In this document: in pieces, positions 19,572 to 25,566 of the stretch
Layout of the letters: every line of letters starts with the position of its first letter
Position numbering within the stretch: the first letter of the stretch is position 1
Sequence record: NC_054934.1
Length of the DNA stretch: 64,000 nt
Source: Escherichia phage teqskov
Direction: 5' to 3' (one strand)
Program-made: the position numbers and the translations under genes
Notes under the pieces: generated by a model
The model's input: only the letters and a program-made list of their open reading frames with translations
Database searches by the model: none
Told to the model about the DNA's origin: nothing

Positions 19572-19859
19572 GTCGTCGGACTGATGTTCCCTGAGTAAGG
19601 AATTGCGTTAATAATCTTTGCGTTTATTGATGCCCTCTTACATCACAGCAGAAACGGCGCACCGAATTATCGATTCGAGGAAATATCTTTGCCGTAAGCC
19701 GAGTAGCGTTTTTGACGGAACGTTCGGATATGGTCGAGATATGGCCTTTTAAAAATATTGAGTAGCGTCAACTACTTAATAACCGGGTTCAAGTCCCGGC
19801 GTTTCGTACAAACACTTGCCTTAGCAGGTGGAACCCCGACAAGGTTGCCGCAAGGCTTA
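19572..19859 (+). ncRNA. probable stable RNA region (T4 species 1/2-like), boundaries not resolved
   Basis: non-coding, GC-richer, contains tRNA-like T-arm ccgggTTCAAGTcccgg; same position relative to tRNA-Arg as the T4 stable RNAs. Confidence 0.35.
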
Positions 19860-19886
19860 GCCCCGACCGAAAGGTTGGGGCTTTTT
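19860..19886 (+). terminator. rho-independent terminator
   Basis: 9-bp stem with GAAA loop (gccccgacc gaaa ggttggggc) followed by TTTTT. Confidence 0.7.
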
Positions 19887-19888
19887 AG

Positions 19889-19896
19889 TATAAATA
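19889..19896 (+). promoter_or_regulatory. late promoter TATAAATA
   Basis: exact TATAAATA about 35 nt upstream of the ATG at 19933. Confidence 0.5.
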
Positions 19897-19932: not shown

Positions 19933-20406
19933 ATGAAATCATATGCTCAATTTTTAAATGAAGCGGTGTTAAATGAAGCATCTAGCACTGAAATTCAAGC
20001 TGTTGCAAAAGCTGCCATTGCCGCGGGTAAATATTCCTATAAAGATGCTTCCGATGAATCACGATTCCAATTTGCTCGTGATATGAAAGCCGAAGGATTT
20101 ACAGGGAATGCAGTTAGTATGGCTTGGAAAAGTTTAGTTGCTACTGGAGCTGCTTTTGCAAAGGCTTCAGGTAAACCTGCTCCTAAGGCTGATCCTAAAG
20201 CAGCACAAGAAAAAAATATTGCTAAAGGAATTATCTCTAGGTATGAAGCAATTCTTAAAGAACTTTTGATAATCAAAACTGAAGGCCAAAAGCTAGCTCG
20301 TGCTTATAGTTTCAAAGATAACCCACATGTTCACTCTCTTGAATATGTTGAAGACATCCAAAAAATTATTAAAGACCGCATTTGGTCTGCTAAACAAATC
20401 AAATAA
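19933..20406 (+). CDS. internal-protein-like protein, Ala/Lys-rich
   Basis: 157 aa; N-terminus MKSYAQFLNEA resembles the internal protein leader. Confidence 0.55.
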   Translation: MKSYAQFLNEAVLNEASSTEIQAVAKAAIAAGKYSYKDASDESRFQFARDMKAEGFTGNAVSMAWKSLVATGAAFAKASGKPAPKADPKAAQEKNIAKGIISRYEAILKELLIIKTEGQKLARAYSFKDNPHVHSLEYVEDIQKIIKDRIWSAKQIK

Positions 20407-20414
20407 CATTCTTA

Positions 20415-20441
20415 GCCCCAGCCGAAAGGTTGGGGCTTTTT
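20415..20441 (+). terminator. rho-independent terminator (near-duplicate of 19860-19886)
   Basis: gccccagcc gaaa ggttggggc followed by TTTTT. Confidence 0.7.
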
Positions 20442-20981: not shown

Positions 20982-21194
20982 ATGACTACTTTAATTATTT
21001 GGTTCGACGAAAATGAAGAAACATACTGCGTGAACATTGGCGAAAGCCCAATGCCAGAATTTGAATCTTCAGATAAAAACTCGGTTGTATCTTGGGCTGA
21101 AGGTTATAAAGCAGCAAAAGGCGATGTTGAAATAGTTTACAAACTCTTGGGAGTAGAGTATAATACTCCCACGGATTATAAAACCCTTAATTAA
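20982..21194 (+). CDS. hypothetical protein
   Basis: 70 aa ORF with SD GGAGAA. Confidence 0.5.
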
Positions 21195-21208: not shown

Positions 21209-21802
21209 ATGAACATGCTGAAGAAAATTGTTGAGTTTATTCGCACTAAACTTGGTTCTGCTATGGCTAAAAATTTATCTGTTGAAGAACAGTATACTGC
21301 TGCGGCAGCAAAACTACTTGATAAGATTAAAGATCTAAAAACTGCTTCTGTTAAATCTATTAATGAAGAAAAACGTATTCGTGAACTTATTGTCGAAAAG
21401 AATCGACAGGCCGAATCAAAAGAGCGTGAAATTCGCAAGCTTCTTTCTGAAGGTCAAGATGTAACAATGCATGCTAAACTCGGCTTGCTATATCGTCGAA
21501 CAGCTGAACAGTTGACTACTAAAGCTGATGGTTATGCTGAAATGCGAATTGAAATCGCCAAGAAAGTAGTTGAATTGGATGATGCTCGCCAAGAACTTGC
21601 AGTTAAATTGGAATATATCCGTGAAACTCGTGCAGCAAATGCCCTTGGAATTAGTACTGCTGATGATGTAGTTGAAATTGCAGCGCTAACTAAAGTTGAT
21701 ATTGAAGATACTCTCGCCCGAGTTGAAACCTTTAATGGTAATATTTCTGGGGTTGAAACTACCTCTGCCGATGTTCAGGAATATATTAATTCTCTGAAAT
21801 AA
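21209..21802 (+). CDS. coiled-coil protein, possibly PspA/IM30-like
   Basis: 197 aa, almost entirely heptad-like helical sequence; PspA resemblance is weak and from memory. Confidence 0.5.
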
Positions 21803-21807
21803 TGATA

Positions 21808-21823
21808 AGGGGCTTCGGCCCCT
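21808..21823 (+). terminator. hairpin (aggggcTTCGgcccct), weak T-run
   Basis: GC stem with TTCG loop directly after the stop codon. Confidence 0.45.
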
Positions 21824-21849
21824 ATTACTTGGAGTAAGTAGGAATGAAA

Positions 21850-22449
21850 ATGCAAAGTGATTTCAATTCAATGTTTGAAGAGTTCCAAAGACAGGTTGAT
21901 GTTCCAGACCAATTACTAAATGCTCTTAAACGCATGGCAGAAGGACGTAATTACTATTGGGGGTCTTCATATGAAACTGATGAAAGTCTTTCTGGATTTT
22001 ATAAAGGTAAAAAGTCTTTAATACGTCCTGGAATACTTATTAACAGTATTGAATCAATTCATTTATTAACATGCGATTTTGACGTTGAATTTACTGATTT
22101 TGTTTCTCCTGAATGGACGGTCTGTTATTTAAACGACGATTATGATTATCTTGGCGTTTATAGTTTAAGTGATGCATGGTTTAAACGTAATTTACAAAAG
22201 TCAAATTTATTCTATATTGATACTACTGTAAAATTTCAGGGCAAGAAATATTTCTTTACTCTTATAGTTGATTCTGAAACGAAGCATGAAAATAAACGTA
22301 TTCTTAGTAAAAAGAATATCTTAACTATTGTCGATGTTCTTTTTGATAAATTCGTAGAAAATCCTAATTTTGAAAGCGATTTATTATTAGAAAAATTTGT
22401 TAAGGAATGTAGAGAATATGTCAAAGCCATCACTATACCTTCCAAGTAA
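21850..22449 (+). CDS. hypothetical protein
   Basis: 199 aa from second ATG (better SD spacing). Confidence 0.5.
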   Translation: MQSDFNSMFEEFQRQVDVPDQLLNALKRMAEGRNYYWGSSYETDESLSGFYKGKKSLIRPGILINSIESIHLLTCDFDVEFTDFVSPEWTVCYLNDDYDYLGVYSLSDAWFKRNLQKSNLFYIDTTVKFQGKKYFFTLIVDSETKHENKRILSKKNILTIVDVLFDKFVENPNFESDLLLEKFVKECREYVKAITIPSK

Positions 22450-22810
22450 ACCCTTAAAGTATGAATTAAAGCGTCAGATAATTTCTACTGATGTGTTAAT
22501 AGGTCCTGTGGTAGCTGTATCATTTGTGATTCTGCTGATTGCTGGAATGGTTATAGACGTTATGACTGATATTGAATCTGGTGCAATATTTGGAGCAACA
22601 CTAATTCTTCCATTGGTAGTTCCGCTTTTATTAGTACCTATAAATTGGATAGGATATTGGTATCAAGGAAGACACTATCGTAAACGTGTACGTGATTGGA
22701 AAGCTCAGTGTAAAAAGATTAAAAAGGAACATCAGCTTAAACTTGCTGCGCATGAATTTGATGAAATTATGAAATTTGTTAAGGAATCACGATGCAAAAG
22801 CCAAAACTAA
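22418..22810 (+). CDS. membrane protein, member of tandem triplet with C-terminal CRK motif
   Basis: 130 aa; central hydrophobic helices; C-terminus FVKESRCKSQN. Confidence 0.45.
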   Translation: MSKPSLYLPSKPLKYELKRQIISTDVLIGPVVAVSFVILLIAGMVIDVMTDIESGAIFGATLILPLVVPLLLVPINWIGYWYQGRHYRKRVRDWKAQCKKIKKEHQLKLAAHEFDEIMKFVKESRCKSQN

Positions 22811-23154
22811 ATAAAGTCAAATATTCTCTTCCTGAGGCACTATTAATTCTTGCCGTATCAGCATTTGCAGCTCTTGCAGGTAGTCTTATTGGATTGTTAA
22901 TTGACTGTTTTATTTTAAACATCGACGGCACAGTAATTATAACAGAGGTTTGGAGTGAACTTCGTTTTACTATAGCGATTTCATTATTTTCATTCTTTGG
23001 TACAATGTTATATTTTCATTATGATAATTTTAAAATAAATTGGCAAAGAAAAAAGGATTACAAAATACAATTAAAGGAATATAATAGCTACATGTCTTAT
23101 ATTGAAAAAGAATCAATGGAAGAGTTTGTGAGTGATTGTAGGAAAATTAAATGA
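22792..23154 (+). CDS. membrane protein, second member of tandem triplet
   Basis: 120 aa; hydrophobic N-terminal half; C-terminus FVSDCRKIK. Confidence 0.5.
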   Translation: MQKPKLNKVKYSLPEALLILAVSAFAALAGSLIGLLIDCFILNIDGTVIITEVWSELRFTIAISLFSFFGTMLYFHYDNFKINWQRKKDYKIQLKEYNSYMSYIEKESMEEFVSDCRKIK

Positions 23155-23639
23155 TTTTAAAAACTCGCTGGTATGATTTAGATGATGGGGACGATGGCAT
23201 TTCAGTTGATAGAGTTGATTGGAGTGGCTGTTCTGAAGATACAAAGAAACGATTAATTAGGGAGTTTAGAATGGGATATCAAGCAGCTAAGCCATCTACT
23301 GTAACAGATGATAAATTCGTGTGTATTCAAAATGGTCGTGCTAAGTTAACGAACGCTGATTGGTTCACAGATAAGAAGGTTATTCTGTGGTATATTATTA
23401 GTTTTCCTGTGACATCATTTGTATTTTGCTTCTTTGGAGAAAGTCCAGTAGGCAGAACGGAAGATTGGATTCTTTTAATTATACTTGTTAATATTTTTAC
23501 AGCAACAGTACTATCAGGAATATGGTGCGTGTTCATTGAAATGCCATGGCGGTTACGTAGGCAGCAAAAGATTTTTGATGAAAAGAAATATACTCAAAAT
23601 TTAAATAATTTTATCACTGAATGCAGGAAATTAAAATGA
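23151..23639 (+). CDS. membrane protein, third member of tandem triplet
   Basis: 162 aa; hydrophobic segments; C-terminus FITECRKLK. Confidence 0.5.
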   Translation: MILKTRWYDLDDGDDGISVDRVDWSGCSEDTKKRLIREFRMGYQAAKPSTVTDDKFVCIQNGRAKLTNADWFTDKKVILWYIISFPVTSFVFCFFGESPVGRTEDWILLIILVNIFTATVLSGIWCVFIEMPWRLRRQQKIFDEKKYTQNLNNFITECRKLK

Positions 23640-24076
23640 AAACATTATCAGCTGGTATTATCTTTATGACAGAAGATAAAGATTTATTTATGGGACGAGT
23701 TACTGGTTCTCGTAAGCCTGGAATGATGGCACATCGCTGGGATATTCCAAAGGGGCGTGTAGAAAATTCTGATTTAAGCGCATTAGATGCAGCACGAAGA
23801 GAATGCTCAGAAGAGACTGGTTTTAACAATTATAATCCAGACCTTCTAGAAGACCTAGGTGTATTTAAATATTCTAGTAATAAAGACTTACAGTTATTTT
23901 ATTATACGATTCCAGTAGAGCATGAGATGTTCAGAAATTGCCATTGCGAGTCTTATTTTGAAAATAAAGATGGTGTTATGATTCCAGAGATGGATGCTTT
24001 TGCCCTTATTCCTCGTACTCAGTGGCAATATGTGATGGGTCCTTCACTTTACCGAATAATGAACAGCCTCTTTTAA
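23636..24076 (+). CDS. nudE: Nudix hydrolase (T4 e.1/NudE-like)
   Basis: Nudix-box-like segment GRVENSDLSALDAARRECSEETGF; start chosen at the ATG with SD AGGA; alternative ATG at 23621. Confidence 0.7.
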   Translation: MKTLSAGIIFMTEDKDLFMGRVTGSRKPGMMAHRWDIPKGRVENSDLSALDAARRECSEETGFNNYNPDLLEDLGVFKYSSNKDLQLFYYTIPVEHEMFRNCHCESYFENKDGVMIPEMDAFALIPRTQWQYVMGPSLYRIMNSLF

Positions 24077-24607
<531 letters not shown>

Positions 24608-24611
24608 AGTT

Positions 24612-24645
24612 GTTTACTTTCTCCTAGAATTGTGATAGTATATTC
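24612..24645 (+). promoter_or_regulatory. early promoter upstream of denV
   Basis: GTTTAC box followed by tgtgatagtatatt -10-like region with flanking inverted repeat. Confidence 0.45.
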
Positions 24646-24666
24646 ACAGTTACTTGGAGGGATAAA

Positions 24667-25083
24667 ATGACTCGTATTAATTTGACTTTAGTATCTGAAC
24701 TTGCTGATCAACATTTAATCGCAGAATACCGTGAATTGCCACGTGTTTTTGGTATAGTTCGTAAGCATGTGGCAAACGGTAAGCGCGTTAAAGATTTTAA
24801 AATATCTTCCGAGTTTATTTTAGGTTCTGGTCATGTTACGTTCTTTTACGATAAGTTAGAATTTTTGCGAAAGCGTCAATTAGACATTATAACGGAATGC
24901 TTAAAACGAGGGTTCAGTATAAAAGATACTGAAGTTCCTGACATCAGCGATATTCCAGTAGAATGGAAAAATGATTATAATCCATGCAAATCAGCTATTA
25001 AATTGAGTCAACAACGACTTGATGAAAAAATTTTAATGAAACCACATTGGTATAAGTATTACGGTAAAAATATTTACATTTAA
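24667..25083 (+). CDS. denV: endonuclease V (pyrimidine dimer glycosylase) denV
   Basis: 138 aa; N-terminus [17 protein letters not shown] and overall pattern match remembered T4 endoV, with divergence in the C-terminal third. Confidence 0.9.
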
Positions 25084-25092
25084 AGGAAACAT

Positions 25093-25566
25093 ATGAAAAC
25101 ATATCAAGAATTTATCACTGAAGCAGCTATTAATTCTCAAATTATTGCTGAATCTTTTACCGATCTTTTGAAATTTAAAAAAGGTCAAAAAATCACTGCT
25201 GTATTGGATGATGGTACAGAAGTTGAGATGGATGTACAGGGATATAATTATGCAGTAGATGGAAAACTGTATAATAAATCTCATGCTAAATTTGATTCAT
25301 TTGACGACTTTGTTAATACAGTTGAAGATGAAAAAACTCGTAGATCCATTGCAACTGGTGATGCTAAGGTTCTTATGGCACATGGTCATGAACGCATTCG
25401 CGCTAAACAGAATAAAATGGGTGAAGATAATTTTGCATTAGTTGGTTATCAATCTGGTAAACAAACTTATGGCTATCAACGTACTGCTACCATGTATAAT
25501 AAAAATGGTAAAATCGCTTTCGTGAATAGTAAAGGTTCTATTCAGTACGTTAAATCGTTCAAATAA
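25093..25566 (+). CDS. internal-protein-like protein
   Basis: 157 aa; N-terminus MKTYQEFITEA matches the internal protein leader. Confidence 0.6.
   Translation: MKTYQEFITEAAINSQIIAESFTDLLKFKKGQKITAVLDDGTEVEMDVQGYNYAVDGKLYNKSHAKFDSFDDFVNTVEDEKTRRSIATGDAKVLMAHGHERIRAKQNKMGEDNFALVGYQSGKQTYGYQRTATMYNKNGKIAFVNSKGSIQYVKSFK

Follow-up and report, generated by a model that had tools for sequence, protein, structure and literature searches.

Just upstream of the Nudix hydrolase and lysozyme genes of a T4-like phage lie three small genes in a row whose products resemble each other mainly at their C-terminal ends: why is this end shared, and what might the proteins do? The locus is in a 64,000-nucleotide (nt) stretch of the genome of Escherichia phage teqskov (sequence record NC_054934.1; "the window" below means this whole stretch). 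Its three consecutive overlapping open reading frames (ORFs), of 130, 120 and 162 amino acids (aa), were initially annotated as a local duplication of a membrane protein with a conserved cytoplasmic tail, and we confirmed their coordinates, lengths and overlaps. Window positions 21800-24700 have 99% identity to Escherichia phage AndreasVesalius and more than 90% identity to hundreds of T4-type phages. By this comparison the window phage is a Tequatrovirus, and the ORFs at 22418-22810, 22792-23154 and 23151-23639 are the orthologs of T4 genes e.4, e.3 and e.2. Together with the gene preceding them, e.5, they are arranged as follows:

21844..22449, plus strand: e.5 ortholog, 201 aa, soluble, phrog_2607; its 3' end overlaps the start of e.4 by 32 nt
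22418..22810, plus strand: e.4 ortholog, 130 aa, phrog_2604
22792..23154, plus strand: e.3 ortholog, 120 aa, phrog_2330
23151..23639, plus strand: e.2 ortholog, full-length, 162 aa, phrog_2203

The e.4/e.3 overlap is 19 nt and the e.3/e.2 overlap is 4 nt (ATGA), a tightly coupled arrangement. The gene order e.6-e.5-e.4-e.3-e.2-nudE-e is identical to the T4 map and to phage AndreasVesalius, and close homologs of e.4, e.3 and e.2 all come from Tequatrovirus-type phages. The three proteins match PHROG profiles from end to end (e.4 to 2604, E = 5e-70; e.3 to 2330, E = 5e-58; e.2 to 2203, E = 1e-77) and e.5 matches PHROG 2607; the function annotation of all four PHROGs is "unknown". In comparison with T4, e.3 and e.4 have 82-86% identity to their orthologs, and e.2 is intact at 162 aa in the window whereas T4 e.2 is frameshifted to 102 aa; the truncated T4 protein (P0192) aligns with the N-terminal ~60% of window e.2 at 87-89% identity. 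T4 annotation describes e.4, e.3, e.2 and e.5 as "conserved hypothetical, predicted membrane proteins". We found no trace of the tail motif, of its carriage by e.5, or of the e.3/e.4 paralogy described below in annotations or in the literature searched by gene name.

A C-terminal motif on four consecutive genes

The C-terminal ends of the three membrane proteins are FVKESRCKSQN (e.4), FVSDCRKIK (e.3) and FITECRKLK (e.2). Their consensus is Φ-x-x-F-[IV]-x-x-[C/Φ]-[RK], where Φ is a hydrophobic residue, at the end of a basic tail. The initial annotation saw a triplet here. All three proteins do carry the motif, but the set is a quartet, because the soluble protein e.5 immediately upstream carries it too:

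22387-22413, plus strand: e.5 motif LEKFVKECR, residues 182-190, 11 residues before the stop; local sequence ..LLEKFVKECREY.. / ..LLEKFVKECREYVKAITIPSK
22766-22792, plus strand: e.4 motif IMKFVKESR, residues 117-125, the terminal copy
23116-23142, plus strand: e.3 motif MEEFVSDCR, residues 109-117
23601-23627, plus strand: e.2 motif LNNFITECR, residues 151-159

In e.4 the motif is present, but the cysteine visible in "SRC" does not belong to it: the TGC codon of this residue overlaps the e.3 start codon (cgATGc) and is therefore not that of the motif Cys, the position of which is occupied by Ser in window e.4. A separate observation concerns an internal motif-like segment of e.4, RDWKAQCKKIK (residues 92-102, nt 22691-22723), just after its second transmembrane (TM) helix. 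MAFFT aligned this segment with the terminal ..EFVSDCRKIK of e.3 and ..NFITECRKLK of e.2, and its (E/D)W(K/E)x(Q/K)C core is retained in e.4 orthologs of other genera. The segment could represent an internal copy of the tail module.

The motif is statistically solid. The strict form F[IV]xxCR has three matches in the 117 ORFs of the window (20,117 aa), each in the last 17 residues of one of the four consecutive genes, compared with shuffle expectations of 0.06 matches overall and 0.003 near the C-terminus. With an extended pattern, Φxx-F[IV]xx[C/I/V/M/S][RK], there are four C-terminal matches in the four consecutive genes versus 0.10 expected. The pattern was defined post hoc from the same data, and it was replicated independently in distant T4-like genera (see below). 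Pairwise shuffles gave z-scores of 4.6 for e.4-e.3, 4.3 for e.3-e.2 and 5.3 for the e.3 and e.2 tails alone. In scans of T4 (1-73.5 kb and 119-169 kb) and of the window (approximately T4 27-91 kb), the strict motif is confined to the e.x cluster. The motif also has some likeness (xEFIxE) to the N-terminal capsid-targeting sequence of internal proteins (MKTYQEFIxE), which we treated as a coincidence, given that the motif stands at the opposite end, the C-terminus, of proteins that are membrane-bound and made early.

We searched for relatives by TBLASTN against 50,697 phage records and fetched their loci, together with 34 more for which the conserved gene e.6 was the anchor. Relatives at 25-50% identity were found in Mosigvirus, Gaprivervirus, Dhakavirus, Klebsiella phages and Edwardsiella phage PEi20. 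Nearly every fetched locus encodes an e.5-like soluble protein with F[IV]xxCR and, after it, an uninterrupted run of one to four two-TM proteins with motif ends, and the copy number and content of the two-TM array differ between genera. Variants of the two-TM tail include FIKECRK, FIKECKS, FIKEVRNGTA, FVKEVRRK, WIRSCRK, FIDDCRRARK, FITECRGKNEIQS, FISRCRVKR and FIQGIRGER. The e.5 homologs retain F[IV]xxCR in all genera sampled, and there are further soluble carriers (FIKYCRGKHVS, FIMQCRMRKTECC, FIRMCRKNR..), as well as FIAKCRAK 3' of nudE in a Klebsiella phage. The motif is thus not specific to membrane proteins, on which it was first noticed. A HMMER search with a merged profile against 1.84 billion representative proteins returned only nine proteins, all from the same families, and the family is therefore confined to T4-like phages; a viral-contig search with e.4 alone gave three loci, none beyond those already collected.

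Mosigvirus, Gaprivervirus, Dhakavirus and other genera have a second tandem family in the same hyperplastic region. Its members are soluble, 65-100 aa long and encoded three to five in a row; all have (G)W[VI]SSSxxC at the C-terminus, and the family is absent from the window (examples are L003 3357-4151, L004 3691-4941 and L012-L041, downstream of e.3-like genes).

About 109 distinct C-termini carry the motif pattern, with Cys at the motif position in 86 of the 109. Among 65 distinct two-TM tails, the hydrophobic share at positions -3, 0, +1 and +4 relative to the Phe is 82, 100, 100 and 92%, respectively, compared with 0-8% at positions -5, -4, +2, +3 and +5, the last of which is always R or K. 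The sharply amphipathic patch Φ(-3), F(0), I/V(+1) and C or I/V/M(+4), followed by R/K(+5) and more basic residues, forms one face of the last two helical turns, and the hydrophobic-moment maximum of each tail coincides with the motif. Throughout the e.4 lineage I, V, M or S takes the place of the "Cys" (I, V or M in the orthologs of window e.4), and Cys is replaced in other proteins too, which argues that this position acts as a small hydrophobic residue.

Membrane architecture and paralogy

Hydropathy supports the proposal of hydrophobic helices in each of the three proteins: e.4, e.3 and e.2 have two each, with Kyte-Doolittle 19-residue means of 1.5-2.7. The layouts predicted from hydropathy and charge are:

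e.4: basic N-terminus 1-30; TM1 ~31-49; acidic loop; TM2 ~57-75; 55-aa basic tail
e.3: TM1 ~19-42; acidic loop; TM2 ~57-75; tail 76-120
e.2: 76-aa N-domain (predicted cytoplasmic); TM1 ~77-95; TM2 ~106-130; 32-aa tail

The N- and C-terminal segments are rich in K and R, and the loops between the helices are acidic, with no K or R in e.4 and e.3 and one Arg in e.2. Under the positive-inside rule this charge distribution therefore predicts an N-in/C-in hairpin with its tail in the cytoplasm, in agreement with the cytoplasmic tail suggested at the outset. An AlphaFold2 model of e.3 made from the merged family alignment (predicted local distance difference test score, pLDDT, 78.5) has a helix at residues 13-44, a short loop, and a continuous helix at residues 50-119; because the second helix is unbroken in the model, TM2 would run straight into the tail. 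The AlphaFold2 model of e.2 is unreliable (pLDDT 52). In a fold search of the PDB with the e.3 model the best match was not significant (E = 0.32, to generic TolQ/ExbB hairpins), and in a search of BFVD the matches were uncharacterized T4-like proteins alone.

The three proteins share an architecture of basic N-terminus, TM helix, acidic loop, TM helix, basic tail and terminal motif, and iterated hidden Markov model searches from each start converge on one set. Profiles built within the genus (effective number of sequences, Neff, 1.2-1.4) gave motif-level hhalign matches only, and cross-genus ortholog profiles were used instead. The e.3/e.4 comparison has a probability of 96.9% and an E-value of 1.8e-10 over 120 columns that include the N-terminal MxKPxL, both TM helices and the tail (E = 0.09 with a reversed profile, and 8e-5 with the motif trimmed). 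For e.3/e.2 the probability is 93.6% and the E-value 2.2e-7 over 82 columns (reversed, E = 0.002-0.005; motif trimmed, E = 0.024). The e.4/e.2 match is not significant: its E-value of 0.049 is worse than that of the reversed control (1e-4), and becomes 0.32 when the motif is trimmed. As judged from the profiles, e.3 and e.4 are full-length paralogs and tandem duplicates. For these two genes the original idea of local duplication stands, and for e.2 it is weaker: e.2, which has an extra 76-aa N-domain, appears linked to them through its tail and architecture alone, with whole-gene homology unproven. The tail motif is the sole feature that e.5 has in common with e.4, e.3 and e.2.

A natural in-frame fusion of e.4 to e.2 in phage vB_EcoM-UFV05 (P0143), in which e.3 is deleted and the two proteins are joined within TM1, shows that the hairpins are in structural register. 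We also noted a 69-aa variant of e.4 (P0196) in which the whole TM hairpin is deleted in frame, joining the N-terminus to the tail.

Selection, expression and a proposed function

We computed the ratio of nonsynonymous to synonymous divergence (dN/dS) among 9-14 Tequatrovirus sequences. In the tails it is 0.17 (e.4), 0.11 (e.3) and 0.06 (e.2), with synonymous divergence (dS) of 0.20-0.34, whereas in the TM-loop-TM regions of the three families it is 0.74, 0.40 and 0.70, which is 4-10 times the value in the tails; for e.5 it is 0.09-0.10. The tails, which are under strong purifying selection, are nearly invariant within each ortholog family, and the TM-loop-TM regions vary, including by 4-residue indels among close relatives. 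The expectation that the membrane parts had diversified is borne out.

Published T4 data bear on when these genes act and whether they are needed. The e.2-e.6 RNAs were classed as early in a time-resolved omics study (PMC9697503, supplementary files 4 and 6), in which all five proteins were detected: e.4 and e.5 early, e.2 and e.6 middle, and e.3 late (PMC9697503). In a T4 genome-wide dCas13d knock-down, e.2-e.6 scored "Not Fit", meaning no fitness defect (PMC11879866, supplementary file 15). Natural losses also occur: e.2 is truncated to 113 aa in phages CM8 and N2 and wholly absent from IME340 and L009. T4 e.2 itself (102 aa; NC_000866 67472-67960 region) is a frameshifted copy of the 162-aa gene, and a 36-aa out-of-frame ORF at 67472-67582 still encodes an intact ..NFITECRKLK tail. 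The knock-down and the natural e.2 losses indicate that e.4, e.3 and e.2 are dispensable in T4.

The reading towards which we lean, with moderate confidence, is that e.4, e.3 and e.2 are a tandem family of small accessory early inner-membrane proteins that share a docking patch on the tail and have a dispensable host- or competitor-directed role, not one in lysis timing. The proteins would adopt the N-in/C-in topology with the tail in the cytoplasm, and TM2 would continue as one long helix presenting the terminal patch. This patch, from its conservation and amphipathicity, would be a protein-protein docking or oligomerization surface, and the tail is most likely a shared cytoplasmic docking helix in which the motif Cys would have a small hydrophobic, not a catalytic, role. 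The hairpins would be variable membrane anchors or specificity elements; along with soluble e.5 they would engage one common partner, which might be each other, a phage protein such as e.6, or a host factor. The resulting inner-membrane function could be host takeover, exclusion or counter-defense.

Several points weigh against this reading. The docking role is drawn from conservation and amphipathicity only, and the patch could alternatively be a membrane-surface anchor. Canonical coiled-coil heptads found no support in the tail: upstream of the motif, hydrophobic periodicity peaks near 3.6-3.67 residues and is not clearly heptad-like. The raised dN/dS of the hairpins averages below 1 and is as compatible with relaxed constraint as with an arms race or diversifying selection on some sites. 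For e.2, whose link to e.3 and e.4 depends on the tail, and for e.5, the shared tail could be a transferred module rather than the product of whole-gene duplication. Lastly, the knock-down screen also scores the essential gene e as "Not Fit", so that its negative result for e.2-e.6 is weak (PMC11879866).

A narrower version of the role is plausible, though we give it a clearly smaller chance: the proteins could be superinfection-exclusion or anti-defense membrane proteins resembling T4 Imm, with the hairpin and its periplasmic loop providing arms-race specificity and the tail acting as a conserved effector or anchor. This would suit early, small, dispensable inner-membrane proteins whose hairpins evolve 4-10 times faster than their tails and have 4-aa indels among close relatives, and whose arrays vary in copy number and content between genera in a hyperplastic region. 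However, the match of the e.4 profile to T4 Imm (12.6 bits, E = 0.006 in 952 ORFs) and to the Imm homolog of the window (E = 0.072) is at the level of TM-composition noise, there was no PADLOC match, and a mean dN/dS below 1 does not demonstrate positive selection. We know of no exclusion phenotype for the e.x genes. An Imm-like activity is compatible with the biological role proposed above for the tandem family, and would be nested inside it.

Gene junctions, promoters and the question of lysis

The DNA that encodes the motif also contains translation signals. The Shine-Dalgarno (SD) sequence of e.4 is an AAGGA located in the K-E codons of e.5, and that of e.3 is the same sequence in the K-E codons of e.4; for e.2 and nudE the SD sequence is AGGA, located in the R-K codons of e.3 and e.2, respectively. 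Two DNA types of gene junction can be recognized, type A (AAATTTGTTAAGGAAT..ATGnAAAAGCCA) and type B (TTTRTNANTGAWTGYAGGAAAWTWAAATGA), with two copies of each:

22393..22429, plus strand: type A copy 1 (e.5/e.4), AAATTTGTTAAGGAAT..ATGtCAAAGCCA; codons K-F-V-K-E, SD AAGGA, e.4 start, first codons MSKP
22772..22803, plus strand: type A copy 2 (e.4/e.3), AAATTTGTTAAGGAAT..ATGcAAAAGCCA; identical 16-nt block, SD AAGGA, e.3 start, first codons MQKP
23125..23154, plus strand: type B copy 1 (e.3/e.2), TTTGTGAGTGATTGTAGGAAAATTAAATGA; motif codons, SD AGGA, ATGA stop/start overlap
23610..23639, plus strand: type B copy 2 (e.2/nudE), TTTATCACTGAATGCAGGAAATTAAAATGA

The alignment score of the type A pair was reached in 4 of 2000 shuffles, and that of the type B pair in 1 of 2000. 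We make no claim of recent gene conversion from the 16-nt identity between the type A copies, which the shared peptide and SD sequence make only slightly surprising. In the e.2-less phages L009 and IME340, the e.3 codons are fused to an e.2-type junction end (TGCAGGAAATTAAAATGAAAACA) at the e.3/nudE boundary. This junction is a hybrid of the two type B copies, and a crossover therefore occurred inside the repeat. Judged from these sequences, the array is a series of cassettes flanked by direct repeats, each of which contains motif codons, a ribosome-binding site and a start codon, and the repeats have served as crossover points that removed or added e.2.

The last of these junctions bears on the annotation of nudE. 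Its start is probably the ATG at 23636 (the 146-aa form), which has the SD sequence AGGA 7 nt upstream and an ATGA overlap with the e.2 stop. The alternative ATG at 23621 (the 151-aa form of T4-style annotation) has no SD sequence, and several GenBank records use the 146-aa form.

An extension of the docking proposal, which we put forward only tentatively and think improbable in full, is a portable docking module: e.5 and a diversifying battery of hairpins would plug into one hub (a phage protein, e.6 for instance, or a factor of the host cytoplasm or inner membrane) via the terminal helix, and the coding DNA of that helix, because it includes the ribosome-binding site and start codon of the following gene, would double as an in-frame site for cassette exchange. 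If true, a docking module with a built-in exchange site would let T4-like phages expand, shrink and reshuffle the battery.

The junctions also raise the opposite idea, to which we give little credence, that the motif is a by-product of constraint at the DNA level (the SD sequence or start codon of the next gene, translational coupling, or a recombination junction) and that the peptide is functionless. The SD sequences of e.4, e.3, e.2 and nudE all lie within motif codons, AGA and AGG make up 48% of codons at the motif Arg compared with a background of 21%, the next start codon is overlapped at 98 of 108 junctions (42 of them as ATGA), and the paired junction DNAs are significantly alike and have recombined. 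Against this, synonymous codons are used freely: at the Phe, Cys and Arg of the motif all of them occur at near-background frequencies, including both Phe codons, both Cys codons and all six Arg codons. The tails combine appreciable dS with low dN/dS, as given above. The spacing between the motif and the following ATG is variable (-7 to +77 nt); the SD sequence is inside the motif at 59 of the 108 junctions and outside it at the other 49, and 12 motif carriers have no downstream ORF. We conclude from these features that selection acts on the peptide. Moreover, the most conserved residues, F, I/V and Φ(-3), lie 5' of any SD sequence. A role in ribosome binding accounts for a secondary purine bias at the end of the motif; DNA-level constraint explains the purine-rich R/K end and the dynamics of the cassettes, but not the motif.

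The position of the array just upstream of the Nudix and lysozyme genes was described correctly at first, but a link to lysis from this proximity is not supported. The surrounding features are:

21136..21164, plus strand: sigma-70-like promoter, putative early promoter of the e.6-nudE block, upstream of e.6; TTTACA-17-TATAAT, 11/12 consensus match only
21209..21802, plus strand: e.6 ortholog, 197 aa, helical, soluble; the most conserved gene of the block
23636..24076, plus strand: nudE (Nudix hydrolase), directly after e.2; followed by e (lysozyme) and denV

No late promoter (TATAAATA) was found between 19897 and 24078, and there is no MotA box in the block. Two copies of TATAAATA, at 24079 and 24092, lie directly upstream of e and are the only copies nearby. 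A GC-rich hairpin with a UUCG-type loop (AGGGGCTTCGGCCCCT) is present at 21805-21825, in the 41-nt spacer between e.6 and e.5, and could affect the stability or processing of the early RNA.

It is very doubtful that e.2-e.4 are holin- or antiholin-like factors that act with the endolysin e to set the time of lysis. They do have a class II-like architecture (small, two TM helices, predicted N-in/C-in, with a charged C-terminal tail), the genes are 500-1700 nt upstream of e, and the e.3 protein accumulates late in T4. However, late promoters stand only before e, the T4 RNAs of the block and the e.4 and e.5 proteins are early, and T4 has its holin (t), antiholins (rI, rIII) and spanins (pseT.2/pseT.3) encoded elsewhere, as established by T4 genetics and annotation. 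In addition, e.2 is truncated in T4 and absent from viable phages, the knock-down gave no phenotype (weak evidence, as noted above), and there is no match to a holin family in Pfam or PHROGs. The lysis link that the initial annotation proposed as a line of study thus finds no support here.

The least credible reading, that the tail is a catalytic or redox element with its Cys-Arg as a rhodanese-like active site or as a metal or disulfide site shared between subunits, has in its favor the name "sulfurtransferase" given to e.3 and e.4 in several source records, the frequency of Cys in the motif and a likeness of C-R-K to the start of the rhodanese active-site loop, but there is no rhodanese or enzyme family match in Pfam or NCBIfam, the protein ends 1-4 residues after CR and leaves no room for the loop C-R-x-G-x-[RT] or a domain, and Cys gives way to I, V, M or S in the whole e.4 lineage and elsewhere, as expected of a hydrophobic helix face.

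The records that name e.3 or e.4 "sulfurtransferase" include P0001, P0006, P0020, P0051 and P0058, among others, and one record names e.3 "DNA primase". There is no Pfam or NCBIfam support for either name on e.3 or e.4, and both look like propagated annotation errors. Precomputed Pfam tags exist for e.4 (PF26873) and e.2 (PF26896), and our own scans of e.2-e.6 with Pfam-A, NCBIfam and PADLOC gave no match above threshold. PDB sequence searches with e.6 and e.5 also gave no match, and the idea that e.6 is a PspA-like protein gained no support and was dropped.

Some further observations concern the neighborhood of the block. Two near-identical 24-nt GC-rich hairpins (AGCCCC..GAAAGGTTGGGGCT followed by a T-run), at 19859-19882 and 20414-20437, flank a gene at 19933-20406. 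The N-terminus of its product, MKSYAQFLNEA, resembles the capsid-targeting sequence of T4 internal proteins, and a late promoter TATAAATA lies at 19889. A second gene with a capsid-targeting-like start (MKTYQEFITEAA) is at 25093-25566, where T4 has ipII and ipIII; the window phage lacks both of these T4 genes, and its denV directly follows e.

Few viruses have been studied as thoroughly as T4, but roughly half of its genes, e.2-e.6 among them, lack an assigned function. One strongly selected, predicted cytoplasmic helix is common to four neighboring T4 genes and to dozens in other T4-like genera, on membrane and soluble scaffolds alike. This reduces several orphan families to the single question of what the helix binds and pinpoints the residues to mutate. 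The locus also adds a documented case of coding-sequence junction repeats that mediate the gain and loss of cassettes in a phage hyperplastic region, and it corrects annotation on three points: where nudE starts, the frameshift in T4 e.2 and the spurious use of the name "sulfurtransferase". What is new about these known orphan T4 genes is detail, namely that the motif is distributed more widely and that it has a dual role in the DNA; we regard this as a modest advance, with no new mechanism.

Among known systems, T4 Imm is the best functional analogy. Like the e.x proteins, it is small, early and dispensable, has two hydrophobic helices and is encoded in a plastic region of the genome; unlike them it lacks the long tail and terminal motif, and there is no significant sequence similarity. 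Class II holins, such as the two-TM holins and the pinholins of lambdoid phages, share with the e.x proteins two TM helices, a predicted N-in/C-in topology, a charged cytoplasmic C-terminus and a nearby endolysin gene. The e.x genes differ from them in being early, dispensable and often lost, in belonging to a group of phages whose type member, T4, uses holin T, and in having no family match. The closest parallel to the gene junctions is the PeSL, an intergenic unit of early promoter plus stem-loop. PeSLs are "mobile regulatory cassettes" that Arbiol, Comeau and Krisch have reportedly proposed to mediate modular gene shuffling in T4-type phages. Contrary to what defines a PeSL, we found no promoter or terminator hairpin between e.5 and nudE. 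In both cases, short boundary repeats in a hyperplastic region act as crossover points for whole-gene cassettes, as the hybrid junction of the e.2-less phages indicates for the e.x array; unlike PeSLs, however, the e.x repeats lie in coding sequence, where they encode a conserved peptide together with the ribosome-binding site and start codon of the next gene.

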